64,000 nucleotides of DNA. Origin: Zootoca vivipara. Lineage: Eukaryota. Both the position numbers and the translations under genes were made by a program. The notes under the pieces were generated by a model that was not told the origin of the DNA, made no database searches, and saw nothing but the letters and a program-made list of their open reading frames with translations. The stretch's first letter is position 1, and each line of letters starts with the position of its first letter. Below, in pieces: positions 18,548-62,941 of the stretch. Location of the stretch: assembly GCF_963506605.1 (NCBI RefSeq), contig NC_083279.1, forward strand, positions 17,236,001-17,300,000, given 5' to 3'.

Positions 18548-19930
18548 TTTCAACACCTTTATTGGCATATATATATAATATAAAAACAAAGACAAAACAT
18601 ACACCACATATAGGTCATTAGTATAAATAGTCACTCAACATCATACAGAAATAATGGAGAGCAGGAGGAGAGAAAGGCACACAAGGGATCCTCAGCTATC
18701 ATTGTTGAAGGCTAGATGTATTGATTTTAATTACATAAATTCTGGACAAGTAGTGGGCCATAATTCTGGTAATTTCGGGGAAGTCATCCCTCAACAAGAG
18801 CTGGACCACTGTTTCCTTGTTGGGGAGGGTTCCAGGTCTTGTAAAGGATAGAGGGGGACCAAAGTCGAAAAAATTGGAAAGGGGACAGTCCAGAATCATG
18901 TGAGCCATAGAGTCTACCTCTTTCTGGCCACAAGGGCATAATCTATTCCAGTAAGGGATGCCTTTGAGTCTTCCGGCCAACACAGAGGATGGAAAAGCAT
19001 TTAGGCGGGCCAACATAAATATTATGCGATAAAAAGGAGATACCAGGTCATATAAATAACTAGGCATCAATCCTTGGTGCGGCGGCAGCCCCAGGAAGGC
19101 AGGCGAGCATACCAGAGGTTGGGCAGGATGAAGTTTCTGGAATTCGATATCAAGCAGTCTCTGCTTAATAAGAGTAAAGATGTATGAGTCCTCATATGTC
19201 AGGAGGGAGTCCACTGGAAGGCCTAGTTGCCTCAGTTTGTTGGAAATATTTGAAAACCATATAAAGCTGTGGCTGTCTTTCAGAAGATAGGATATCAGGC
19301 TATCTGGATCGGTATTAAAGTGAATTTTTAGCCAATATTTAAGAGTAATAATCCAACCTCTTGTCTCAAGAAGGTGTTGGCCCAATTCTGCACAGATAGC
19401 CAGGTATGGCACACATTTTGGTACTCCAAGAATTTGCCGAAAGAAGGATGACTGGACTCCTTCTACTTTGTTGTTAAAGCTGGATATCCATAAGGGGATC
19501 CCGTATAGAAGCTGGGAGGCAGATTTTGCCTTATAGGCACTAATTGCTGCAGGTACAAATTGATTCCCACCAAGGAAGTGAAAACGCTTGATTTGTGCAA
19601 CAGAGCATCTTGCTAAATTAATTGTTCTATTGCGATGGGTCGCCCATTTTAAGTTATAGTGAAAGGTGACACCCAAGTATTTATAGCATTTAACTTGCTC
19701 CATTTTTTGGGTTCCAATCGACCAGTTGAGTGGACACCAACTTTTAGAGAAAACAAGGATCTTTGACTTGGAGTAATTAATTGCTAGGTGATTCACTTCA
19801 CAATAATTGGAGAATGCTCTTAGATATCTTTGTAGCCCAACTCTGGAATAGGAGAGAAGAGCAGTATCATCTGCGTACAAAAGGGTAGGGATTGCTTTGG
19901 TATCTAGTCTGGGAGGGTGGCCATTTACAT
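18548..19930 (-). mobile_element. 5'-truncated non-LTR retrotransposon, RTEX-like
   Basis: Open frame with YADD and YKYLG motifs and a C-terminal CPC...H...C knuckle; 3' UTR ends AATAAAGGTGTTGAA; clade assignment by resemblance only. Confidence 0.75.
18699..19880 (-). CDS. Partial LINE ORF2 (RT C-terminal half and zinc knuckle)
   Basis: 393 codons without a stop: YADDTALLS...INYSKSKILVF...YKYLGV...RLCPCGQKEVDSMAHMILDCP. Confidence 0.8.
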   Translation of the reverse strand: MYADDTALLSYSRVGLQRYLRAFSNYCEVNHLAINYSKSKILVFSKSWCPLNWSIGTQKMEQVKCYKYLGVTFHYNLKWATHRNRTINLARCSVAQIKRFHFLGGNQFVPAAISAYKAKSASQLLYGIPLWISSFNNKVEGVQSSFFRQILGVPKCVPYLAICAELGQHLLETRGWIITLKYWLKIHFNTDPDSLISYLLKDSHSFIWFSNISNKLRQLGLPVDSLLTYEDSYIFTLIKQRLLDIEFQKLHPAQPLVCSPAFLGLPPHQGLMPSYLYDLVSPFYRIIFMLARLNAFPSSVLAGRLKGIPYWNRLCPCGQKEVDSMAHMILDCPLSNFFDFGPPLSFTRPGTLPNKETVVQLLLRDDFPEITRIMAHYLSRIYVIKINTSSLQQ

Positions 19931-22799
19931 TTACATTTACTTTCTGGAGTCTATGCAGTGTGTATTCATTGCTTGGTAATTAATGTTCTATATACAGTAT
20001 ATGATACAGGAGCCTTTGCTGAAGGTGGATAAATTTAGTATCTTTCTAGGTGGGAACTAAGCATTAGGGTGGAAGAATGGTTGATGCTTAAAGCTAGGGT
20101 CTCTTCCCCTTGCACATAGGATCTGGTGAGATGAATGGCAAACACACATGTGCTATAATGTCTAGCTCCAGTGCGCATATTTGAAGACTGAAACAGAAAT
20201 CTGAATCAGATATTAATATGCATTGTTATCTTATAACTAGTTCTCCCCTCCCCCAGCAAAATGTAGGAATAGGGAATTTGTGACCCTCCAGTTGTTACTG
20301 GAAAGCTCCTCAAAGACATGATTAGAAGGGTTGTCCACCACAGGTTTCCCATCCCTGATGTAAATAAGAGACAATACACAGAGTGGGCATTCTACAAAGG
20401 GAACTGCTCAGAGCACATTTGTGTGCCTGGAGGTTTCAATGTAGTTGTGGCTCCATGCGCAAAAGTGTACTTCTGAACATATCACCTGTTCTAATTCAGA
20501 GCACAGATCTCTGAATGTTTCATAACTATATTTGTCAACCATCTGTACCAGTCACATAATTTTAACATTATTTATATGTGGTTTGCGTCCAGTTGCCATG
20601 TCCTCAAATGAGATTTTTTTAATTGGCCTAATGATTTTCTAGCTGCCAAACAGATTAGACTTTTTGGCAGATGGAAGGCATGTGTATGGGATGAGGGGGA
20701 GGGTGTCAAGTGTTGCCCTGAAATGAGTGTGACAGAAGGGATTGTTTCTTTTCAGACTAATGGCTATTGAAAATATTGTGGTGACAACTCGGATGAGAAA
20801 GCCAGGCTGCGATGGGTCATTATCTTCAAATGAAATCACTTTTGGCTCTTTCACACTTGTGTGATACACGTTTCAGAATTTTAAAACTTGGAATTTTGTG
20901 AACACTTGCAAAGAAATCACCCTAAAAGCTCTGCCAGCATTGCATACCTTTAAGTCCTGTGAAATAAATGAAAGAAATAGACACATTAACCTAGGAATTG
21001 TGGAGATTACACATCAAGTTTCCAAGCCAGAGCCACCAAATGCCTTGCATCCCACCCTATTCCCTAATCTGTTTTATGTGATCCCTCCCCCTCCCATTTC
21101 ATAGCCTGGTAGTGTCTCCAAATCATCATTATTTTGTGGAAAGTGCTCAAGCACAAATTAGAAATTTAGATGTGTGTGATTTAAGTGGATTAAAACACTC
21201 TTGTTGTGAGGCAGCCAAGGGTTGTGTATGTGTTCCTTTTCCCAGTAACCATTTTTTTCCCCTAATTCTGCATCTTCGCTGACTGCCCAGGCTTCCTGAT
21301 GGGAGGAGTTACCTCATTATTCCTTCCCCTGGGCTTTAATTGATGACTCAGCTCTGTCACCCAGGGAGGATGCAGACTACAGGTGACATAGAATAGATTG
21401 TAAAATGAAAGAAAGGACAATCACAAACGTCCTTTGGCTATCTCAAAAACCCTGCACTTTGACTCATGTAAATTGCACCATTTTTCTCTCCTCTTTCACA
21501 ATTTTTGAATGCAATCTGGCTTTTATCCAACAATGCTCTAACTCTGATTCGCATCCTTACTTATATACATTAGCTCATAAAACTATACTATATATATTCA
21601 GGAGAAAAATGAACACTAGACTTGATGACCCTTGGGCCCCTTCCAACTCTAGGAGTCTATGATCGGATTTGGAAGAATGTGTCAAATGTTTGGATTGCAT
21701 TATTGGGTCCATATTGCACAATACATGAATTCTATATTTTTGGTCTTGAAGAAAACTTTCTTCCTTTGAAATCCTTTGGTGCCATTTTGTCTTCCTTTCT
21801 ACTTTGGTGCACTGAGCATATGAATAAAACTGTTTGATTTCAATTTTATTTTATTTTTCTCTGTGACTTGTGCCCCTGAGGCTCAAAAAAATCAAGCACA
21901 CAGAAGAAAACAAGCATTTCAATCAATATATGATAATTTAAGCACAACATGAGTTGCAAGTTGTCAGTGGGGTTTTGACTCATTTGTGTGGGAAAGGTCT
22001 GACTTTCCAGATCTGGAGCACTGGAAAAACATATGGTGTTGTCTAATCACTCACATAAAATTAATGAAGGTTAAAGCTTAGCAATTTCTTTACCATTTTT
22101 TTTTTTGTTACCTCTAGTGTGGAGACTCATAATTATTGACCTTTTGTTAGAAGTTGTTAAGTTTGGTGTTATAATACAACATACAACATTTCACTTATGT
22201 CGTTCATTGTAGATATTGGAATCAATTCTTCTCATGCACTAGTATTTTGTAGTCAGTAGGTGGCATATAGGAGATAAGAATATTTTCATTAGGGCCACAG
22301 CCTTTATTTGGTTTAATGAGTAGATTCAGCATCTAAAGATAGAAACAAATTTTAATCAATAAGGGCACAATTTAATTGGTTGAGTTAACACCAGAGTTGT
22401 TGATATTTTGAAGCAATTAAGTCTCTGATAGGGCATTGGAAAAGGAAATATTAAACGTGAACTTTCCTTCTTTTAAATTGATTTTTTTTTTTAAGTTTTC
22501 AAAGATTTTATCCATTTTACTTCACAGACAATATACAATTAGCTTATATTTTATTCCTTTTGACATTGAACCCTTCTCTCCTTGATGTTTTTGTTCTTAT
22601 CCTTGCTTGCTGCATTATAATTATCACCAACCCCCCCAACACAATCTTATCATTTTTAAGGTGAACTTTCCTTCCAAGAATTATTGCTTCCAACTTATTT
22701 ATTTCACATTTTGATATATTGAAAAATCCATCAATATAGAACAATATGCTGAGACATTTTAATGAATCACTGGATAACTAGTTACAGATAAATGAACCA

Positions 22800-23894: not shown

Positions 23895-23934
23895 TGTTGT
23901 TGCTTAGTCGTTTAATCGTGTCCGACTCTTTGTG
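23895..23934 (-). mobile_element. BovB (RTE) 3' end, left half of the Ngaro target
   Basis: TTGCTTAGTCGTTTAATCGTGTCCGACTCTT matches 45171-45201. Confidence 0.8.
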
Positions 23935-24324
23935 TGGCTATGTCCCTCCTTCCCACATAATCAAGACTCGTGACACAGAGATTAAGATTTAATTGGGTGG
24001 TTAAGGCCACAACTTTATTGATAAGCATGTTGAGCGGAATTGGCTTAGGCGTTGGAACCTAACAGACTATATCCGACTCCAACCCGTGTGTTGGAGTCCC
24101 TGAGAAGTTAACCACCAGCAAGGAGCCCCGCGATGTAGATCTACTAGAGCTCCTCCTGTGGCCACCGAAGGGGCGTGCCCTACGGCCCAGGCAACTCCAG
24201 GCTCAGGACCAAGCGACGCCCCCGGAATCCTTTAACGGAATTACTTCTCCCGATTTGGGCAGCCGTTGACGTAATCTGCCCCTCCTCCTTCTATTGTTAT
24301 GCAAATTTCCAACGCCTAACCGCC
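23928..24324 (-). repeat. Split direct repeat B2 (3' terminus), 397 bp
   Basis: Identical by eye to 24699-25095 (offset 771); minus-strand AATAAA at 24019-24014. Confidence 0.95.
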
Positions 24325-24482: not shown

Positions 24483-24705
24483 TGAACTGTTCGCTCCGGC
24501 GAACAAGGGGAAAAGAGGTCGGCTTCCCGCCTGCGGGGAGCTTTAAAACTGCCGGCTCCGCCCCGACCATTCTCATTGGCTGGTCGGGGATGACGCAGGC
24601 GGGAAGCCACCAACGCGTAGGGGCTGAACTTGCAGCCCCTACGCGGTGGTGCAGTCGGTCGGCCCACAACGCCGCTTCCGTCGCAGGCGCGGAAGCGGCT
24701 TTGTG
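24483..24705 (-). repeat. Split direct repeat A2, 223 bp
   Basis: Identical by eye to 31612-31834 (offset 7129). Confidence 0.95.
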
Positions 24706-25095
24706 TGGCTATGTCCCTCCTTCCCACATAATCAAGACTCGTGACACAGAGATTAAGATTTAATTGGGTGGTTAAGGCCACAACTTTATTGATAAGCATG
24801 TTGAGCGGAATTGGCTTAGGCGTTGGAACCTAACAGACTATATCCGACTCCAACCCGTGTGTTGGAGTCCCTGAGAAGTTAACCACCAGCAAGGAGCCCC
24901 GCGATGTAGATCTACTAGAGCTCCTCCTGTGGCCACCGAAGGGGCGTGCCCTACGGCCCAGGCAACTCCAGGCTCAGGACCAAGCGACGCCCCCGGAATC
25001 CTTTAACGGAATTACTTCTCCCGATTTGGGCAGCCGTTGACGTAATCTGCCCCTCCTCCTTCTATTGTTATGCAAATTTCCAACGCCTAACCGCC
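24699..25095 (-). repeat. Split direct repeat B1
   Basis: Identical by eye to B2; overlaps A2 by the 7-bp core CTTTGTG. Confidence 0.95.
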
Positions 25096-25222
25096 ACTCG
25101 AGCCCCCCCCTGGGCTCGCCGCCAATCCGCTCTCATGCCTTAACCAATAATTAGAGATTAATTGGATATTTTAGGGACTTCATATACTGTTTAAGGGGCC
25201 GTGATCCTCCTCTCTTATTCAC

Positions 25223-25798
25223 CTAATTAAATTCTCTAACACGTAACCATTCTTTGATCCCCATTATTACGTTCTCTAGCCAGACATCATTCCCTCTGGG
25301 CGACAGATGAACACCATCATGACGATAAAGGGCTGCTTCGCTCTGTTTTAACGTTGGATGCGAAATGGCACGACCATTCAAAGACAGGACTCTACGGATT
25401 ACGAAGGAATTCAGGAGCCGTCTGGCTCTGTTCAGGGCGATAGGACAACGACCATCACGCCAACTGCGTCTCTCAAGCAAGGAGGACCAAAGCAGCGTCA
25501 TCCTCGGGCAAATGTCCAAAAGGGCATCAAAGTCTCTGAATATTTGTAATTTTAAGTCCACGGCATTGCGATAGGCAAGATCATTCTCTCCAAGCTGGAC
25601 CACCAGTAGGTCAGGGTAGCCGAGTGAAGCAGCCTGTTCCTGTATTGCCGGCAGCAACTCGTCCCACAGCATGCCTCTCCTCGCAATCCAAGACACCTGG
25701 ACGAATTCTGGAAGGCCCAGCCTGTTCCCTAGGCCCAACTCGATGGCCCTTTCACGAGCCCAATGGACTATGCTATGCCCAGCTATCCAAACCCGCAC
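25223..25798 (-). CDS. SGNH/GDSL-family hydrolase (esterase) ORF of the Ngaro element
   Basis: Motif blocks VWIAGHS (I), RG (II), VQLGEND (III), DGVH (V); annotated start is GTG and there is no upstream ATG. Confidence 0.85.
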   Translation of the reverse strand: MRVWIAGHSIVHWARERAIELGLGNRLGLPEFVQVSWIARRGMLWDELLPAIQEQAASLGYPDLLVVQLGENDLAYRNAVDLKLQIFRDFDALLDICPRMTLLWSSLLERRSWRDGRCPIALNRARRLLNSFVIRRVLSLNGRAISHPTLKQSEAALYRHDGVHLSPRGNDVWLENVIMGIKEWLRVREFN

Positions 25799-25859
25799 GA
25801 TCCGAGAACCTGAAATTCAAGAATGACAACCAGGGATCAGCCAGGCCACCGTGTCGACG

Positions 25860-26768
25860 CTACGCGCGAATATACCTTTTGTACGCATTCGATTTCCACC
25901 TCCCCAAGTCCTGAATTCTTTCGGATGAGAGGCCCAGATGCATGGCTGACGTAGCCGCGCCAATCCTAAAGGAGTGTGCAGAGAATTCATTGGGATTATA
26001 GCCGCAGGAGGCAATGGCCTTGCGCAGAACCCTAGTAAATTGGTGGCGGGTGAGCCTAGCGCTATCCTGGTGGATCAGCAATGGACCTGGGCCGGGGGGC
26101 CGGAGATAAAGATACCGTCTGGTATCTTTAACCGGACATGGACCCGGGGAACCAGTGGCGGGGAGCTTAATAGTCGCGCCCCTTCCCCTCTGGTCCGTTT
26201 TGGAACACCGTATGAGCACCTGCATTTGGGAGTCAACCAGTGACACGTCCTGCATGAGAATGCCGCGTGTGATACCCTGGGGGGAGTCCTCACATACCAC
26301 CTCGCCCACTCTTAGCGCTCCAAAATATGCTATAGAAAAGGCTGCGGAGAAAAGGCGCGCCTCAAATTTGGACCAACAGAGGGACCTCAACTGCCTGTGT
26401 ACCTGAGCCAACATGTCAAAGGTAATGGGACGCCTGGGGTCGCTGACAGGCGGCTGGAGCCTGCGCCAGCCCTCCATAGCCCTACGCAAATGGAAATTGT
26501 CACACGGGTCTGTAAAATAGAGTGCTTTTGAGAAGAATGTGATGGCTGCTGTGTGAATGTTAAGAGTCCTTGGTGCGCGCCCCAGGTTCCTCAAGTGCAC
26601 TACATACTGCATGACCTCCTCCGGGGAAGGTGGGGCCCGAAGGGGAGCAGAGGTCTGTCTCTGCCTGAACGTAGTGAAGTCTGACCAAGCCCGTTTATAC
26701 GAGCTCAGTGTAGACGGGGCAACGGAAGCTAATACTCCCTTTAGGATCTCTCGCTCCCAAGGTTCCAT
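25860..26768 (-). CDS. Tyrosine recombinase (YR)
   Basis: Catalytic motifs GALRVGE (R), SKTDQ (K), HSFRIG (HxxR), LGRWKSNAYKRY (W, Y); ATG start. Confidence 0.95.
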   Translation of the reverse strand: MEPWEREILKGVLASVAPSTLSSYKRAWSDFTTFRQRQTSAPLRAPPSPEEVMQYVVHLRNLGRAPRTLNIHTAAITFFSKALYFTDPCDNFHLRRAMEGWRRLQPPVSDPRRPITFDMLAQVHRQLRSLCWSKFEARLFSAAFSIAYFGALRVGEVVCEDSPQGITRGILMQDVSLVDSQMQVLIRCSKTDQRGRGATIKLPATGSPGPCPVKDTRRYLYLRPPGPGPLLIHQDSARLTRHQFTRVLRKAIASCGYNPNEFSAHSFRIGAATSAMHLGLSSERIQDLGRWKSNAYKRYIRA

Positions 26769-28588
26769 AGCTGTTCCGGGAACGGCTCCGGCGACTGGCT
26801 TGCCTCCGGTGCCAACGATCGGAAGCGATCCATCTGGAAGCGAGACAGAGCATCTGCGATATTATTATTGACCCCTGGCACAAATTTGGCAGAAAAATGC
26901 ATATTCAACTGCAAACTGAGTAACACGAAGTGGCGTAGGAGGGAGGACACCCTCGTCGACCGCGTGGATTGCCGAGATAGAACGCTGACCACCGCCTGGT
27001 TGTCGGTTCTGAAGCAGACCCGCCGGTTCCTGAAATCCTCGGACCATAGGTGTACGGCTACTACTATGGGAAAGAATTCTAAGAATGTTAAGTCGCGTGT
27101 GATGTCTGTACCCTGCCAGCTGGCCGGCCAGCGCTGCGAGCACCATTTACCTCTGAAGTAGACCCCGAAACCCAAAGCACCTGCCGCATCGGATTGCACT
27201 TGGAAATCGGCCCGCAGCAACATGGTGTCCTGCCATAGTGACACCCCGTTGTAGCTCTCCAGAAACATCAGCCAGGATTCAAGGTCGGCCCTGACCCCGC
27301 AGGGGAGGCGCTTCCTATGATAAGGTTTGGTTAAGCCCACCGTGAGCCTAGCTAAGCGCCGGCAGAATGGGCGACCCGGTGAAATAACCCTGCAAGCAAA
27401 GTTGAGGTGCCCTAGCAGTGATTGCATTTGTCTAAGGGTAAGTTTTTTAAGGGGAATGAGTTGCCTAATGGTCTCTTTGAGGGCGAGTAGTTTATCAGAC
27501 GGCAGGCGTGAGGTTTGTGCGACCGTGTCCAGTTCTATGCCCAAGTACGTAAGGCGTGAGACGGGCCCTTCGGTTTTTTCGGCAGCCAGTGGAACCCCTA
27601 ACTCCTCTGCGAGAGCTGAGAAGGCCCGCATAAGGCCTGCACACTCGGAACTGCGAGCCCCAGCCACGAAGAGAAAGTCATCCAGATAATGCGAGACCCC
27701 TGGAAGGCCTGTCCTGAAGCGCAGGGCCCAGTCCAGGAATGTGCTAAAGGCCTCAAATGCGGCACATGCCACGGAGCAACCCATCGGCATGGCCTTGTCA
27801 ATGAAATATGCCTCATTGAATCTGAAACCCAACCATTTATAGTCCTGCGGGTGAACAGGGAGTAGGCGAAATGCTGATTCGATGTCACATTTCGCCATTA
27901 ACGCCCCCTTGCCAAATTGCCTCACTAACTTCACCGCCTGATCGAATGAGGCATATTTCACAGTGCACAGCTCCTGGGGTATTCCATCATTGACTGACCT
28001 GCCCATCGGGTGGGAAAGATTGTGTATGAGCCGGAATTCCCCGGGCGCCTTCTTGGGGACTATTCCCAATGGGGAGATGTGGAGATCAGGTATCGGTGGC
28101 GACGCGAACGGGCCAGCCACGCGTCCTGCTGAGATTTCCTTGTTAATTTTCTTAATGGCTATATCAGGCCTTTCCCTAATGGATTTTTGATTGGGGGGTT
28201 CACCCGTGCTAGGTGGGGTACGCACGGGAATACGGAAACCTGTTGAAAACCCTTCCCACAGGTATTTTGCTGCATCTCTATTGGGGTAACAGTCAAGCAG
28301 TAGTTTCAGAGGGTGAAGCTTTACAGGGGAGTGGGCCAGGGCGAGTGATCTATTAGTATTTATTAGTCCCCGAGATTGATCCCTGGGGGGCACCTGAGGT
28401 ATTTCTGGGGCCCTGGTGCGAGTTGCCCCTGGCGCCACGAAAGGACTGCCTCCCCTTAAAACACGAAACTCCCGGGTGCTGACCCAAACACTTTTCGCAT
28501 TCGTGGGAGTACTTACAGTTGGGTCGCTGACAAAGGCCCTTGTTATATTCCCAGCAAACCCTGCGTCGCGGGTCCCTCTTGTGCTCAA
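26741..28588 (-). CDS. Reverse transcriptase and RNase H (pol)
   Basis: KCDIESAFR, MPMG and YLDD RT motifs; RNase H motifs SDAAG, LEFFP, TDNQ, IADALSR; true start unclear. Confidence 0.95.
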   Translation of the reverse strand: MSTRGTRDAGFAGNITRAFVSDPTVSTPTNAKSVWVSTREFRVLRGGSPFVAPGATRTRAPEIPQVPPRDQSRGLINTNRSLALAHSPVKLHPLKLLLDCYPNRDAAKYLWEGFSTGFRIPVRTPPSTGEPPNQKSIRERPDIAIKKINKEISAGRVAGPFASPPIPDLHISPLGIVPKKAPGEFRLIHNLSHPMGRSVNDGIPQELCTVKYASFDQAVKLVRQFGKGALMAKCDIESAFRLLPVHPQDYKWLGFRFNEAYFIDKAMPMGCSVACAAFEAFSTFLDWALRFRTGLPGVSHYLDDFLFVAGARSSECAGLMRAFSALAEELGVPLAAEKTEGPVSRLTYLGIELDTVAQTSRLPSDKLLALKETIRQLIPLKKLTLRQMQSLLGHLNFACRVISPGRPFCRRLARLTVGLTKPYHRKRLPCGVRADLESWLMFLESYNGVSLWQDTMLLRADFQVQSDAAGALGFGVYFRGKWCSQRWPASWQGTDITRDLTFLEFFPIVVAVHLWSEDFRNRRVCFRTDNQAVVSVLSRQSTRSTRVSSLLRHFVLLSLQLNMHFSAKFVPGVNNNIADALSRFQMDRFRSLAPEASQSPEPFPEQLWNLGSERS

Positions 28589-29852
28589 ACCTGGTGGACC
28601 TAGGTGGATCCGTATGTTTCCTTTCTACATATGGGACTACGTGATTGCTCCAAAAATGCTGGTGGCGCTGATCCCACCTGGTTTTGGGGTTTTGCGAAGC
28701 ATTCCGACGGAAGTCTTCATCGTAATTCAGCGCTGCCGCCTCCCCGGCCATCCTGTAGGCCATCCTAACATCAGCTATGTAGGCCATAAGGTGCATGGCC
28801 CTTTTTGGATAAGCAGCTGTTATCACTGCAATCCAAATATGCATTCCATCCAGCCAATTCTCGAACGTGCGGTCAGCCCGCGGCGTCCTATGCCTGCGCC
28901 TACCATACTCCTTTCTCTTTTCGCCCTTTCCCAGCGTATGGGACAATGGTAAGAGGGTGAAAATGTCTATAAAATCACCATTCAAGATTTTTTCCCTTGT
29001 TTTATTTGATAAATGGGATCCCAGAATGATATCCGTGTCTGAGTTGGTAGAATACTTTGAGTCCGGTATCAAAGCACCATCCCTCCACTCTAACGTCCCC
29101 TTGAAACCCTTACGGTGGGTGCTGGCTCTCCTCTTATGCACCCACAAAGGAAGACCCATCTGATCCTCTGCAATCCCCCAATAATCCTCCATTGGGATCT
29201 CCTCATCCGAATCGGACGTACCTGAGTCATAGGAGTCGTCATCCTTAGCTCTCTTACGCTTGTTGGTTTTCTTCTTCGCCTTTCCGCTCCGCTGACGCTC
29301 TTCTCCGTCCCGCGACGCCGCTTCGCCACTTCCCGCCGGCCTGGAGTTGTCATCGTCCCCCGATGTATCGGAACCCCCAGCTTCCCTTTGCGCCACTGGT
29401 TGCACAGGCTGGGCCCCTGGGAGACCTGCAATAGACTGTGAGGACTGCCCGGGCGAACCTGCTGCTTGAGCCCCGGCCCCCAGGCTATGGGCATCGGGAG
29501 CATTAGATCGCGCCTTCTGCCCCCGTGTCCGTGGGGCCTGGCTCGCAACGCTTCCAGGCTCGGAGCTAGAGCTGGCGAATAAGGAAGCCGAGGTGCCCGG
29601 CGATCCGCCCTCTGAAAAATAAGTATCTAAGATACAATCCTGAGACTCGGCAGGCTCGACCTGGGACTCACGAGGATCATCCTGCGTGGCCTCAGCTGCG
29701 GGGGCCAAAGATTTTGCAATGGCCGCCAGCTGTTTGCAAACATCCAGCTGGGTCTTCTGAAGCGTGGAGACCACACGTACCAAGGCCTCAGTCTTGTCCT
29801 GAGCTGCAGGAGTCTTGGAGGGGGCCGAACCTCGCACACGCTTGGGTGCCAT
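28353..29852 (-). CDS. Gag-like ORF1 (first ATG at 29852, MAPKR...)
   Basis: N-terminal amphipathic helix, basic NLS-like KAKKKTNKRKRAK, C-terminal Cys/His cluster CWEYNKGLCQRPNCKYSHECEKCLGQHPGVSC typical of YR-retrotransposon gag. Confidence 0.85.
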   Translation of the reverse strand: MAPKRVRGSAPSKTPAAQDKTEALVRVVSTLQKTQLDVCKQLAAIAKSLAPAAEATQDDPRESQVEPAESQDCILDTYFSEGGSPGTSASLFASSSSEPGSVASQAPRTRGQKARSNAPDAHSLGAGAQAAGSPGQSSQSIAGLPGAQPVQPVAQREAGGSDTSGDDDNSRPAGSGEAASRDGEERQRSGKAKKKTNKRKRAKDDDSYDSGTSDSDEEIPMEDYWGIAEDQMGLPLWVHKRRASTHRKGFKGTLEWRDGALIPDSKYSTNSDTDIILGSHLSNKTREKILNGDFIDIFTLLPLSHTLGKGEKRKEYGRRRHRTPRADRTFENWLDGMHIWIAVITAAYPKRAMHLMAYIADVRMAYRMAGEAAALNYDEDFRRNASQNPKTRWDQRHQHFWSNHVVPYVERKHTDPPRSTRFEHKRDPRRRVCWEYNKGLCQRPNCKYSHECEKCLGQHPGVSCFKGRQSFRGARGNSHQGPRNTSGAPQGSISGTNKY

Positions 29853-30184
29853 TATCAGGTTGTAGCCAAACACTATTCAGTATTATTATTATAATTATTT
29901 ATAATTTGCTTATTTATTTATTATTATTACCCTGTTTACCTCTATATATTATTATTTATAATTATATAATTATTTTATTTATATCTTAGTTTATTTTAGA
30001 TATATAATTATACGGGCTTATAATTGTCAGGTTACCGGTTTAATGCTATTATAATGTATTATTGCTAAGCCTCACCACAGGGGGGACGAATGAGCTATGT
30101 ATATAAGCGAAAGACAAGTCCCAAGTCGCTAAGCTCAGCAAAAACTTTTTGGCCTCCGCTGAACAGATCGCCTATAATGCCTCG

Positions 30185-30510
30185 GCAGCGGGTTGGACTG
30201 GATGACCCTTGTGGTCTCCTCCAACTCTATGATTCTATGACCCTAATCGATTGCTCCCTGGATAAGCCACTCGCCCGCACACAGCTAAATGCTTTGCAGA
30301 GGGTTGTTCTGGAAGGCCCCCGTGGACTCTTCCAGCTCTTATGATTCTATGATTCTATGTTTATAATTAGTTGTTCCAAAATTCCACTGGCCAGCACTCA
30401 GCTAATGCTTGGCGAGGGGGTTGGACTGGATGGCCCCTGTGGCCTCCTCCGACTCTATGTTTCTATGGCTCTAATTTGTTGTTCGCAGATACACCACTGG
30501 CCACAGGCGC
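30185..30510 (+). repeat. Triplicated ~115-bp unit containing a CR1-type 3' tail, inside the Ngaro leader
   Basis: GGGTTGGACTGGATGACCC...CCAACTCTATGATTCTATG at ~30190, ~30301 and ~30417. Confidence 0.75.
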
Positions 30511-30699
30511 TGGCCTCAAGATGCCAATCAACTTTAACTAGCTTATTATATCTTAAAAATTAAGTTCCCTATGAAAAACTCGATTGTGTACTGTGAATAT
30601 TAACTAGTAAAACCCAGCCAGCCGATAGGGTGCACTAGTCCACCAGACACCACAGAAGTAAATAGCAGTAAATGTAGCCAGGCAGCACAAGTGGCCACT

Positions 30700-30980
30700 C
30701 TCAAGATGGCCGCTGAAGAAGGGACAGTGTTTGCCCACACCTAAAATGGCTGCCGGGACAGGGTTTGCCAACACCTAAAATGGCTGCTGGGACTGAGTCT
30801 GCCCACACCCAAAATGGCTGCCGGGACTGGGTTTGCCCCCACCTAAAATGGCTGCTGGGACTGAGTCTGCCCACACCCAAAATGGCTGCCGGGACTGGGT
30901 TTGCCCCCACCTAAAATGGCTGCTGGGACTGAGTTTGCCCACACCTAAAATGGCTGCCGGGACACCTAAGATGGCTGCCG
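30700..30980. repeat. 34-bp minisatellite (~8 units) in the Ngaro leader
   Basis: AAAATGGCTGC at 30743, 30777, 30811, 30845, 30879, 30913 and 30947. Confidence 0.9.
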
Positions 30981-31611
30981 GCAGGAGTACTCACACGTGC
31001 CCTTCTTAAAATGGCGGCTGAAGAAAGGACAGGGGCTTGCCCTTAACCAAAATGGCTGCCGGACAGGATCACAACAAACAGATAAGTAACAAGAGCCGAA
31101 GCAAAGCAACCTAAACAGGGTATACGTGGCCGGCAAAGTAAACAAGCATGGAAAACTAACCACAGCCGTAGCAAAACAATATACACCGTAAGCAGGACGC
31201 CCACCACCCGATTCCAGGGGATAAGGCAAGGAACCACCAGGAACTATGACGGGGGGGGGGGCCCACGTTCACTCACCCAGCTGTACCGCGAAGAAAACAG
31301 ATCCAAGGTACGAGGGGGAGAGGGCGGCAGCCGCCTCCGCTCTTAGCCACCCAGCGAGCTTGCCAGCAGGAAAAACAAGAGGGCAGCAGGAATCCGCGGC
31401 GGATGGGGTGCTCCTCTCGGCTGCGAAAGCCCCAGCGCTCCCTCGGTGGTTAACTGCTTTCAGGCTGCAGCTGAGTGTCGTATATCCCCGGCGCTGCACC
31501 TCCGTGAACAGCTGGTAAAACAGCGAGGCCCCGAAGGACAACCAAAAACAAGCTAACTGGAACAGCGAGGCACTACAGGAAATAAGGACGGAAAAGCGCG
31601 ACAAGCTATGC

Positions 31612-31834
31612 TGAACTGTTCGCTCCGGCGAACAAGGGGAAAAGAGGTCGGCTTCCCGCCTGCGGGGAGCTTTAAAACTGCCGGCTCCGCCCCGACCATT
31701 CTCATTGGCTGGTCGGGGATGACGCAGGCGGGAAGCCACCAACGCGTAGGGGCTGAACTTGCAGCCCCTACGCGGTGGTGCAGTCGGTCGGCCCACAACG
31801 CCGCTTCCGTCGCAGGCGCGGAAGCGGCTTTGTG
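31612..31834 (-). repeat. Split direct repeat A1 (5' terminus)
   Basis: Identical by eye to A2. Confidence 0.95.
31668..31730 (-). promoter_or_regulatory. Putative Pol II promoter in repeat A
   Basis: Minus-strand order TGCGTCA (CRE-like), CCAAT, GGGGCGG (GC box), TTTAAA (TATA-like), pointing towards gag; duplicated in A2. Confidence 0.5.
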
Positions 31835-35017: not shown

Positions 35018-35723
35018 TCCTGCAAACGTGAGGTGATGGGTGCTCCGAACTTCGCAATAGGGTGCTCCGAGCACAGCAGCAGACAGAACAGTTCTTCCCG
35101 GATAATGAACTGTATATAAACAGCTTACTACACATTTAAGTGATCGCTGATCTATGGTCATTTGATGTACCTTTGGGAACAATTAATTTGCTGATAAGGA
35201 ATTATCATTGAAACAGTTCATTATCCTGGAAGAACTGTTCTGTCTGCTGCTCGGAGCACCCTATTGTGACCATAGCTGCCAAGTACCCCGTTTTCCCCGG
35301 GAAACCCCCCGTTTTTACTTACCTTTTCCCGGCGGTCCCCCGTATCACTTTGTCTCCCGTTTTTCTCCGTTCTTTTCTCCTGTCGGCGGCCATTTTTTCT
35401 GATTTGCCCATCTATGGGCACCGAAAATGGCTGCCGCTGGCTTCGAAAGCCGCGTCTACGCATGTCCAGAAGTGCGTAGACGTGACTTCCGGTGTTGTCG
35501 TCGGCCATTTTTGGTGCCCATAGATGGGCAGAGCGACCCCAGAAGTTGTGTCTATGCGCTTCCGGACATGCATAGACGCGACTTTCGAAGCCGGCTGCGG
35601 CCATTTTCGGTGTCCATAGATGGGCAAAGCGGCTGCCGGGTCATGCGGCTGCCGGTCCCGGATTCTGCAGTCCGGAACTTGGCAGGTATGATTGCGACGT
35701 TCATAGCACCCACGTTTGTAGGA
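35018..35723. repeat. Fold-back palindromic element whose right arm is split by a MITE
   Basis: 35018-35113 is the reverse complement of 35213-35270 plus 35691-35723. Confidence 0.7.
35271..35690. mobile_element. hAT-type MITE (CATAGCTGCC family) with internal palindromes
   Basis: TIR CATAGCTGCCAAG/CTTGGCAGGTATG; 8-bp TSD ATTGTGAC/ATTGCGAC. Confidence 0.8.
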
Positions 35724-45170: not shown

Positions 45171-46050
45171 TTGTTTAGTCGTTTAGTCGTGTCCGACTCT
45201 TCGTGACCCCATGGACCAGAGCACACCAGGCACCCCTGTCTTCCACTGCCTCCTGCAGTTTGGTCAAACTCATGTTAGTAGCTTCAAGAACACTGTCCAA
45301 ACATCTCGTCCTCTGTCATCTTCTTCTTCTTGTGCCCTCCATCTTTCCCAACATCGGGGTCTTTTCCAGGGAGTCTTCTCTTCTCATGAGGTGGCCAAAG
45401 TATTGGAGCCTCAGCTTCAGGACCTGTCCTTGCAGTGAGCACTCAGGGCTGATTTCCTTCAGAATGGATAGGTTTGATCTTCTTGCAGTCCAAGGGACTC
45501 TCAAGAGTCTCCTCCAGCACCATAATTCAAAAGCATCAATTCTTCGGCATTCAGCCTTCTTCATGGTCCAGCTCTCACTTCCATACATCACTACTGGGAA
45601 AACCATAGCTTCCACTATACAGGCCTTTGTCGGCAAGGTGATGTCTCTGCTTTTTAAGATGCTGTCTAGGTTTGTCATTGCTTTTCTCCCAAGAAGCAGG
45701 CGTCTTTTAATTTTGTGACTGCTGTCCCTATCTGCAGTGATCATGGAACCCAAGAAAGTAAAATCTTTCACTGCCTTCATTTCTTGCCCTTCTATTTGCC
45801 AGTAGGTGATGGGACCAGTGGCCATGATCTTAGCTTTTTTGATGTTGAGCATCAGACCATATTTTGTGCTCTCCTCTTTCACTCTCATTAAGAGGTTCTT
45901 GAATTCCTCCTCACTTTCTGCTATCAAAGTTGTGTCTTCTGCATATCTGAGGTTGTTGATATTTCTTCCAGCAATCTTAATTCCATTTGGGATTCATCCA
46001 GTCCAACCTTTCGCATGGTGAATTCTGCATATAAATTAAATAAGCAGTTA
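45171..46050 (-). mobile_element. BovB (RTE) LINE 3' fragment
   Basis: ORF 45316-45927: ...LNIKKAKIMA...FTFLGS...MYGSESWT.KKAE.RRIDAFELWCWRRLLRVPWTARRSN, the classic BovB RT C-terminus. Confidence 0.92.
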
Positions 46051-61530: not shown

Positions 61531-62437
61531 GGCTAGAACAATAGGTCTTTGGTCAGCTCTGTTACTTTGACATGGGTGTATATCTTATTAAAAGTTAGAA
61601 GAATGCACACCGCTGCCATCAAAAATGGCAGCAGTATGTGGCGCTCTCCAGTCTCTGTGTAATGTAGAATGGCAAGTTACCTTTGGTTCGTGCATAATTG
61701 CATAGAATATTTCCTCACTGTCTCCTACTCCACATTGGTGGTCGTCAATGCCAGTGGAATGACACCAGTACACATGCAAACTTTTTTTTTTTTTAGATGA
61801 TCCCCACCGTTTTGGACATAATATTAATTTGAGGATAAGGCTAGTAGTGACTACTTGCCACTGTTCTGCCTCCATGCCTCTGAATGCCAGTTGATGAAAA
61901 TCACTAGTAAGGATCTGCTTGTGGGCTTCCCATAGGCAATGGATTAGTCAGTGTGTGAACAGAAGGCTGAGCTAGATGGCCCATTTGGTCTGATCCAACA
62001 GGCCCTTGTTGTGATTTTTGGGTAGTGTCACCTTCAGAACTTCAAATCAGGGAAACCCATATGAACATTTGTTCAAAGTTCTCCGAGAAAGTGGTAGGGG
62101 GAGAAAGACCTCACTCTCACAGGAGTTGAATACTGTAGTTCAGTGAAATGGGACAGGTAAGGATCCTGTAAATTTCTAGTTGTTATGACACAAAACCTCC
62201 CAGATAGTCAGTGTGACAACAAAACAGAAAGCAGCTTTCAAGAATATATTTGTCAATAGTAGGGATGAATGAATCTGTCAATTTCAGTTTCTCTGTTTTC
62301 CAGGCTTAGCTCATCCCCCCCCCCCAACACACACATTTCTACAGCAATAGATGGTGAAGGGGAGAAAATCTCTTACGAAGTTCCTGCAGCCAATCCGAAG
62401 CCTTGCTGCCCGCAGCTGAGGTAAACCCGGCGAGGCC

Positions 62438-62759
62438 ATGGATGGAGAGGCTGGTGGGCAGGTGGTGGGTCTAGGTTGTGCCATGGGCATTGTGACGGGC
62501 ATATCACGGGGTTTCAGCCAGAGCTTGGCGTGCCTGCTGGCCCCGCGCCAGGTGCCCAACTTGGCGCTGCTGCTGGTGGGGGGCTCAGCGGCCACGCTGG
62601 AGCAGCTGGAGGGTGAGCTGTGTGCCACCTACTCAGCGCTCCATGTACGCAGCCTGCCCACTGACCTGGCCTCAGGTGACAGGCCGCAGCGCATGGTGCA
62701 CACCACCTGGGAGCTCCGTGGGGACGGGCCGATGAAGTGGCTGCTGCTCGTCAACGGCA
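62438..62759 (+). pseudogene. SPR: Degenerate copy of sepiapterin reductase exon 1
   Basis: GLGCAMGIVTGISRGFSQSLACLLAP...LEQLEGEL...LHVRSLPTDL...LLLVNG resembles SPR ([25 protein letters not shown]...LRQLEAEL...LRVVRVPADL...LLLINNAG, from memory); phase-1 GTGAGC donor at 62760; TGxxxGxG and NNAG motifs damaged. Confidence 0.7.
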
Positions 62760-62786
62760 GTGAGCGAGTGGCCCCGAGACACACTC

Positions 62787-62941
62787 CTGAGCATGTGCAG
62801 AGTGTGTTCCTCCTCCAGGTCCGGAGGCAGCTGTGGGACTGGCTTGCAGGGTATTTATATTTTTCAAAATATAGTCCGCCCCCTCCACAAGGTCTGAGAG
62901 ACAGTGGACTGGCCCCCTGATGAAAAGGTTAGCTGACCCCT
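62787..62941 (+). mobile_element. One end of a hAT-type MITE
   Basis: TAGTCCGCCCC...GGACTGGCCCCCTGATGAAAAGGTTAGCTGACCCCT resembles a Charlie/MER30-like terminus; the other end was not found. Confidence 0.55.

Follow-up and report, generated by a model that had tools for sequence, protein, structure and literature searches.

What protein is made from an esterase open reading frame (ORF) that lies at the 3' end of a retrotransposon and has no start codon before its catalytic site? The question is raised by a 64,000-nucleotide (nt) stretch of the Zootoca vivipara genome (GCF_963506605.1, NC_083279.1, 17,236,001-17,300,000), which we call the window and in whose coordinates all positions are given. 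The minus-strand element at 31834-23928 is a vertebrate Ngaro retrotransposon (order DIRS) with ORFs for Gag, for reverse transcriptase and RNase H (RT/RH), and for a tyrosine recombinase (YR). As in other vertebrate Ngaro elements, an SGNH hydrolase ORF lies 3' of YR. We propose that a phase-1 splice donor in gag and a phase-1 acceptor in front of the esterase are very probably joined, giving a predicted 405-amino-acid (aa) fusion of the Gag helix, a disordered linker, a basic patch and the SGNH esterase. The start-less esterase ORF would then be made via the gag start, because it would be spliced to gag exon 1.

A sequence-only reading of this DNA had proposed such a join, and the splice sites that it described are present as claimed. 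The hydrolase ORF (25816-25223) is preceded by an in-frame TGA at 25819-25817, and the first ATG in its frame, at 25672, lies past the catalytic GHS. The acceptor occupies 25810..25840 of the minus strand, in a non-coding spacer of variable length: a branch-point-like CTGAT, a pyrimidine tract and an AG (TTGAATTTCAG then G), cut at 25810/25809 in phase 1 of the hydrolase frame. The donor (29216..29224, minus strand, cut at 29222/29221), a conserved GT column with the form CAG or CTCAG followed by GTACGT, reads CTCAG then GTACGT in the window. It too cuts in phase 1, 631 coding nt into gag as counted from the ATG at 29852, at codon 218 if the ORF is numbered from stop to stop. By arithmetic, the join removes an intron of 3412 nt and leaves a 405-aa product. 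The coding part of exon 1 (29222..29852, minus strand) comprises 210 codons and 1 nt, and the SGNH esterase forms the terminal exon (25223..25809, minus strand). The intron has the traits of the U2 type, namely a GT donor, a branch point, a pyrimidine tract, a YAG and matching phases. The donor ranked second of 425 GT and the acceptor tied for third of 553 AG in the window alone on rough scores, those for donors resting on an approximate frequency table and not on MaxEntScan.

To assess conservation we compared the window with 39 other copies of its family (the close set) and with 60 loci added across the score range of genome matches. Of these 100 loci, 94 with a recognisable G[HDN]S were kept and 6 were dropped; SGNH identity to the window went down to 41% among the added loci. 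TCAG and GTAC were kept in 34/34 close copies covering the donor, with the +5 G altered in two, while CTGAT and YAG followed by G were kept in 37/37 close copies covering the acceptor, where changes in the tract were mostly from pyrimidine to pyrimidine. The best AG was in phase 1, either 26 or 29 nt before the GHS Gly codon, in 92 of the 94 loci (the exceptions were L048, at a deletion junction, and L109). The spacer from the YR stop to the acceptor varied from 46 to 100 nt and occurred in all three frames, except in one copy without the stop. A YTNAY motif was found 23-38 nt upstream of the acceptor in 26 of 27 cluster representatives.

We then scanned alignment columns blindly, from just before the donor to the end of SGNH, in 21 divergent family representatives of the same genome. 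Among the GT columns, 29221 was best: it was present in 20/21 families and had a mean score of 3.8, versus 0.5 for the next of 60. Fourteen YAG columns were conserved, and the top two were 25809 and 26833, each found in 21/21 families and each in phase 1 of its own ORF. The sequence-only reading had named conservation of the position and phase of donor and acceptor as a test, and they are kept in 20 (donor) and all (acceptor) of these 21 families, whose identity to the window at four-fold sites in RT is 0.17-0.41, near saturation.

Conservation of the donor extends to codon choice. The donor Gly was GGT in 20/20 families, the sole column at >= 0.95 among 43 gag columns of four-fold or higher degeneracy (mean 0.44), and in the single-coded columns of gag, RT, YR and SGNH this level was reached by 2/367. 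NCA-GGT occurred in 22/24 clusters versus 7/96 other [ST]-G pairs. In L085 the donor is altered to CTG followed by GTACGT, still a donor; L094/L095 have lost the usual donor and have a stronger phase-1 donor ~165 nt upstream. Donor-bearing families fell on both sides of the root of a midpoint-rooted RT tree built from copies of this genome alone. Compared with six copies, the ratio of nonsynonymous to synonymous substitution rates (dN/dS) was 0.09-0.17 for SGNH and 0.24-0.34 for exon 1. Donor and acceptor are conserved beyond coding need, and their conserved positions and phases are accompanied by purifying selection on the esterase.

Public gene models include joins of the same kind. Among 13 long homologs, ten had a Gag-N-like (N-terminal Gag) part followed by SGNH (Zootoca vivipara and Podarcis muralis labels), two were host-gene fusions and one was YR-SGNH. 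The RefSeq models P0002, P0006 and P0020 align with 0 differences to loci L050, L051 and L082, each as a phase-1 GT-AG join between the homologous sites. Their introns, of 3421, 3396 and 3399 nt, each remove the zinc finger, RT/RH and YR; at these loci the same ATG, if unspliced, reads on into a zinc-finger Gag. Four further RefSeq models map with 2-5 differences. Models with an N-terminus and SGNH are also labelled gecko, anole, cordylid, anguid, newt and frog, the Gag identity of the N-terminus being established for P0090 alone. In this Logan protein a single ORF, on a contig of 1677 nt, runs from Gag-N into SGNH; the N-terminal part shares 64% identity over 143 aa with the zinc-finger Gag P0182, also from Logan, to which the window Gag is 28% identical over 240 aa (E 4e-31).

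Several observations weigh against the fusion. The RefSeq entries are taken here as gene models, with their read support out of view, and among the homologs found none is a model of the window's own family (best SGNH identity 57-59%). The P0090 contig comes from a run of unspecified type, and the P0090/P0153-like clade lacks the basic patch beside the junction, a feature specific to the lacertid clade. The homolog set also holds ten YR-SGNH models, one RT-SGNH and one GagC-SGNH, while P0191 has the gag donor spliced to an RT acceptor that is specific to one family. Because YR-SGNH, RT-SGNH, host-gene-SGNH and Gag-N-RT joins are all modelled as well, the RefSeq models alone are not proof. The 21 families are not independent draws; because they share ancestry, counts over them are not independent trials. 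An in-frame ATG lies upstream of GHS in 37 of the 94 loci. No Gag-N-YR gene model was found (4 matches among 8000 candidates scored). Finally, in RNA mapped to 24710-30700 from three raw runs (X6, X7 and X8, ~6% of each) and one contig run (X1), the joint at 29222-25809 was not found, and unspliced sequence across the acceptor was present in one contig of X1 (25181-25992) and in a small number of X8 reads.

The same RNA runs also gave no joint at 29222-26833. In them, gag and RT were covered at a depth of 0-4, the RT/YR overlap at no more than about 5 and the donor at ~0-1, and most reads piled up at 30184-30240, within a repeat copy of the 5' region. The window family is nearly silent in the RNA runs examined, and the absence of junctions there neither supports nor refutes the join. 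Intron-less genomic copies were likewise absent among the best-scoring candidates, which these searches cover: a junction pattern search gave 0, and among the matches to three fusion models (104, 98 and 80) there was no copy that contains both exons. Spliced RNA seems to be rarely retrotransposed. The core of the sequence-only reading, that the SGNH ORF is a terminal exon attached to the 5' part of gag, is strongly supported by conservation, codon constraint, RefSeq models and the Logan contig; no junction reads were found for the family itself.

Could the esterase be made without the gag exon, either from a short transcript of its own or by translation that starts after the YR stop, through reinitiation or at a non-AUG or upstream ATG codon? 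The upstream ATGs and the ten YR-SGNH models are in keeping with such expression, as is the unspliced X1 contig, which spans the acceptor, the YR 3' end and SGNH without gag. The ATG positions are scattered, however, both in the window's cluster, where 14/37 copies have one, and elsewhere; 13 of the 27 clusters have no usable upstream ATG in any copy, and spacer length shifts the frame freely. Nor does expression without gag account for the branch point, the pyrimidine tract, an AG kept in fixed phase or a donor conserved down to its codons, and we consider it very improbable. The in-frame TGA is present as first described and is limited to the window's subfamily; it is not general, as many copies are open for 51-172 codons upstream, and we rejected it as a family-wide feature.

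It is also conceivable that the acceptor is real and is served by another donor, in a 5' leader or in host genes, while the gag donor serves another acceptor. Splicing into this exon is seen in host-gene models such as P0001 and P0012, the 5' region has a recurrent GGTGAG that resembles a donor, and P0191 shows the gag donor in use with an RT acceptor in one family. With a non-coding leader, however, the first ATG would lie past the catalytic Ser, a misfit with a dN/dS near 0.1 and intact motifs. The exact RefSeq joins use the gag donor, and none of the 14 conserved YAG columns provides a phase-1 acceptor at the RT start. This arrangement appears very improbable.

Finally, the signals could be a coincidence of coding constraint and the models artefacts of gene prediction. 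Gene predictors do join nearby ORFs, and the RNA runs contained no junction reads. On the other hand, the acceptor sits outside coding sequence, synonymous positions are fixed at the donor although the background is saturated, the donor of one family has moved with its phase kept, and P0090 is a contiguous ORF. Coincidence is thus extremely improbable, and splicing of the gag donor to the esterase exon is the reading that we carry forward. Alternative isoform labels in public annotation are said to need transcript evidence.

What would the fusion look like? The SGNH blocks GHS (Ser codon 25774-25772), RRGM, GEND and DGVH are intact in the window and occur in 92, 91, 94 and 93 of 95 open copies, respectively, and the esterase of the fusion is predicted to be active. 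Pfam GDSL matches were weak for the window ORF. A model of the RefSeq fusion P0002 has a helix at 38-55 and then a long linker of low confidence; the SGNH domain, predicted with confidence, begins at ~208, at the junction. A fold search with P0002 gave a best Z of 19.5 (root-mean-square deviation 2.3 over 173 residues), with GDSL lipases, platelet-activating factor (PAF) acetylhydrolase and acetylesterases nearby; the ESM Atlas returned SGNH or hypothetical clusters alone. In the window, AlphaFold2 predicts an N-terminal helix at residues 16-48 (29709..29807, minus strand; predicted local distance difference test, pLDDT, ~61-71) and Gag has pLDDT <50 over 68-224, a stretch that contains the donor. 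For the coiled coil that had been suggested in exon 1, the prediction shows a single 33-residue helix, modest in confidence. In the predicted structures the junction point sits between the disordered linker and the first strand of the SGNH fold. A basic patch (KAKKKTNKRKRAK, 29244..29282, minus strand), presumably similar to a nuclear localisation signal (NLS) or an RNA-binding motif, precedes the donor in the lacertid families examined, and the SGNH domain is itself basic, with a net charge of +6.

Retroviral env and other spliced subgenomic RNAs use splicing to reach a 3' ORF of one genomic RNA. An analogy with env had been drawn for this element, and it holds for the predicted spliced subgenomic RNA but not for the protein, which lacks a transmembrane segment and retains 210 residues of Gag. 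No hydrophobic or transmembrane segment and no signal peptide were found in the fusion (maximum 19-residue hydropathy 0.71 in exon 1 and 1.05 in SGNH), and because it has no hydrophobic segment the fusion is not Env-like.

A closer parallel is offered by the ZfL2-1 ORF1p esterase of L2/CR1/RTEX long interspersed nuclear elements (LINEs; PDB 4c1b), which binds acidic phospholipids via surface charge (PMC3905857; this and the other papers cited here were available to us in partial text). As predicted here, an SGNH esterase, an N-terminal helical part and a basic motif are combined in a structural protein. ZfL2-1 ORF1p is encoded by one ORF without splicing and has a dimeric coiled coil at residues 15-91, whereas our fusion, as modelled, has a 33-residue helix, a disordered stretch of about 140 residues and, beside the esterase, a basic patch, and would be joined by splicing; moreover, the L2/CR1 protein is encoded by the first ORF of a non-LTR (long terminal repeat) element and ours by a YR retrotransposon. 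Because the similarity of window-type esterases to 4c1b is weak (profile E 0.03; Foldseek rank 34), convergence is likelier than descent as the source of the likeness. The predicted fusion would be a second case, probably an independent one, in which a retroelement tethers an SGNH esterase to its structural protein.

We suggest that exon 1 would act as a shared address tag: its helix could co-assemble with Gag and its basic patch could bind RNA or enter the nucleus. The esterase would thereby travel with the element ribonucleoprotein, where its substrate might be a lipid or a membrane, in line with the proposal made for ZfL2-1 ORF1p. Judged by analogy, a lipid or membrane substrate class has somewhat less than an even chance of being correct. 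There is a substantial, if smaller than even, chance that the splice is real and yields, instead of a membrane or structural protein, an enzyme that works mainly as a nuclear or cytoplasmic deacylase on proteins, glycans or small molecules, or as a counter-defence factor. An exon 1 that ends in what we take to be an NLS-like patch, which would suit YR too, and the lack of a hydrophobic segment are in line with this, as are acetylesterases and PAF acetylhydrolase among the nearest folds, the weak match to the ZfL2-1 esterase, and papers on fungal and protist Ngaro elements that, in the text available, do not mention the hydrolase. Against it stand the domain layout, which converges on that of ZfL2-1 ORF1p, an esterase that binds acidic phospholipids by surface charge, and the net charge of +6 on the domain here.

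Among other retroelements, the Xenopus elements DIRS-53_XT/54_XT are vertebrate Ngaro elements with the same A1...B1-A2-B2 repeats and the same series of gag, RT/RH, YR and then an SGNH ORF, described as a Hydro-SGNH ORF with 'no proven function' (PMC9210276). The main text of that paper, as available, treats SGNH as a separate fourth ORF and mentions neither splicing nor an intron; here it is predicted to be a terminal exon fused to Gag-N. Bdelloid LTR retrotransposons also have an extra 3' ORF, the GDSL/SGNH ORF3, and their ORF3s are typically expressed via spliced messages (PMC5408684), but these are LTR elements whose SGNH ORF3 is without coiled-coil or transmembrane domains, and the accessible part of the paper makes no mention of a Gag fusion. 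Splicing is also known for the Gag RNA of Ty1/Copia (PMC5580714), and foamy viruses make a separate Pol (PMC3196705). In Copia, splicing yields Gag alone; here it would yield a Gag-N-esterase with 210 Gag residues and no transmembrane segment.

The conserved column at 26833 suggests a second use of the same donor. That the donor might also serve YR was part of the sequence-only reading, which had placed the acceptor at 26772-26771; that AG was found in the window copy only among the copies tallied, and we rejected it as not conserved. The idea of a shared donor remains plausible with another acceptor, at 26834/26833. This candidate (TGTCTCGCTTCCAG then A, 26833..26855, minus strand) is in phase 1 of the YR frame and is the second-best YAG column (21/21). 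The YR frame is open from 26834/26833, 65 nt upstream of the annotated ATG, and the YR start codon is ATG, GTG, TTG or CTG across families. The acceptor overlaps RNase H codons and is partly protein-constrained, and the RNase H Gln at this position is CAG in 20/20 families. Because of this overlap with coding sequence, and because no Gag-N-YR model was found, we put splicing from the gag donor to 26833, with a predicted Gag-N-YR product of 534 aa, at about even odds.

How, then, is RT/RH expressed? Passing from gag to pol requires a +1 shift, and no ATG precedes the RT core in the window. In the gag frame, TCC_TTT_CGT at 28437..28445 (minus strand) is a predicted +1 ribosomal frameshift site of the PA-X type; the form (T/C)CC-TTT-CGN is present in 21/21 families, and the pol frame is open from the motif to RT in 74/79 copies. 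In gag at large, TTT accounts for 165/322 Phe codons and AGR for 397/871 Arg codons. Influenza PA-X has a +1 frameshift site of identical sequence, UCC_UUU_CGU (PMC3498833), and amalgaviruses use UUU_CGN (PMC5052127). These viral systems share with the Ngaro site the upstream-frame motif, the +1 overlap and the lack of a stable downstream structure (no stimulatory RNA structure was found 3' of the motif, z -0.89); the site predicted here lies at a retrotransposon gag-pol junction. A 1036-aa Gag-Pol is likely to be produced by +1 frameshifting at UCC_UUU_CGU, as judged from the sequence.

Two variants of the gag-pol region were noted. In L081, L086 and L087, gag is in frame into pol, with open frames of 840-1095 aa, either a real variant or a homopolymer error in a C-rich tract. 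RefSeq models of the L086/L087 family splice the gag donor into the RT N-terminus instead (intron of 930 nt on L087). The RT acceptor of P0191 was rejected as a general signal, being family-specific.

Taken together, one promoter and one shared Gag-N exon could serve four proteins in vertebrate Ngaro elements. Unspliced RNA would give Gag and, by the likely +1 frameshift at UCC_UUU_CGU, Gag-Pol; alternative 3' splice sites would give Gag-N-YR, from the same donor to 26833, and Gag-N-esterase, the latter a particle-associated, lipid-acting accessory convergent with L2/CR1 ORF1p. The full scheme is tentative and unlikely to hold in every part. If it is true, YR retrotransposons have an expression programme like that of complex retroviruses. 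The element also accounts for many 'uncharacterized' reptile RefSeq genes, as retrotransposon products, and its strong acceptor probably lets host genes gain an esterase exon. The exact splice sites, the frameshift site and the likely product, a Gag-N fusion and not the bare domain, are now mapped.

Ngaro elements are a known kind, and the Gag-N-esterase fusion and the +1 frameshift may be new. Ngaro splicing, a Gag-SGNH fusion and a gag-pol frameshift were not found in the literature searched, including the available text of PMC9210276, PMC3783388, PMC7192593, PMC6681497, PMC3266345, PMC9341512, PMC8547959, PMC5408684, PMC3905857 and PMC5009743; the scope of the search stopped short of two core reviews (Goodwin & Poulter 2004; Poulter & Butler 2015) and the Repbase notes. 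In the frameshifting review PMC5009743, DIRS, Ngaro and tyrosine recombinase are unmentioned in the 300,000 of 449,034 characters searched. The same literature, as far as its text was available, does not describe how the overlapping start-less Ngaro ORFs are expressed and assigns no function to the hydrolase.

The element that carries these signals has the layout of a Ngaro element, with split direct repeats in the order A1 ... B1 A2 B2 and overlapping gag, RT/RH and YR ORFs. All of its features are on the minus strand. A1 (31612..31834, 223 nt) forms the 5' end and is 100% identical to A2 (24483..24705), and B1 (24699..25095), with an AATAAA at 24790-24785, is 100% identical to B2 (23928..24324), which forms the 3' end. 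A long variable 5' region (29853..31611, 1759 nt) has one ATG and a 34-nt tandem array at 30721-30963. The gag ORF (28353..29852, 499 aa) encodes an N-terminal helix, a disordered linker, a folded core and a C-terminal CCCH/CCHC zinc finger. The RT/RH ORF (26741..28624; Pfam RVT_1, E 3e-12) has no ATG before the RT core, and the YR exon or ORF (25860..26833) matches Pfam Phage_integrase (E 1e-4). Methyltransferase, DDE integrase and protease domains were absent among the Pfam matches of the four ORFs at E <= 0.1.

The element ends have a short ACAAAG-like junction common to the B end and the A start (31829-31834 and 23928-23934; also the ends of L011-L038). No target-site duplication is evident, which is what integration by a recombinase would produce. 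The 5' region diverges much faster than the ORFs and contains, at 30155-30484 and 30687-30997 (minus strand), a transcribed and abundant repeat in two or three degenerate copies, together with the 34-nt tandem array. L012, L040 and L048 have internal deletions that join the 3' end of A1 to about 27766, 29042 and 25787 (window terms). These joints fall away from the splice sites and may reflect rebuilding of the 5' repeat in reverse transcription.

Some SGNH homologs appear to belong to host genes. P0001, P0012, P0022, P0023, P0030 and P0041 have long host-like N-termini (IgSF1-like or ZNF638-like where named) followed by the Ngaro esterase exon, possibly reflecting exon capture via the strong acceptor. 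Others (P0025, P0027, P0035, P0036, P0073 and P0124; P0086, P0109, P0126, P0131, P0136 and P0148) are large proteins with 4-6 tandem SGNH copies or one C-terminal copy, and are possibly domesticated or donor host genes.

Elsewhere in the window, fragments at 18699-19979 and 45316-45993 (both minus strand) resemble the C-terminal part of LINE reverse transcriptases, as judged by eye. Nested inverted repeats at 35075-35631 (93-nt arms, 85%; 39-nt arms, 97%) are probably a small palindromic DNA transposon. A GC-rich stretch at 62420-62920 (plus strand) holds a 166-aa open frame that resembles a short-chain dehydrogenase exon and that we take to be sepiapterin-reductase-like.

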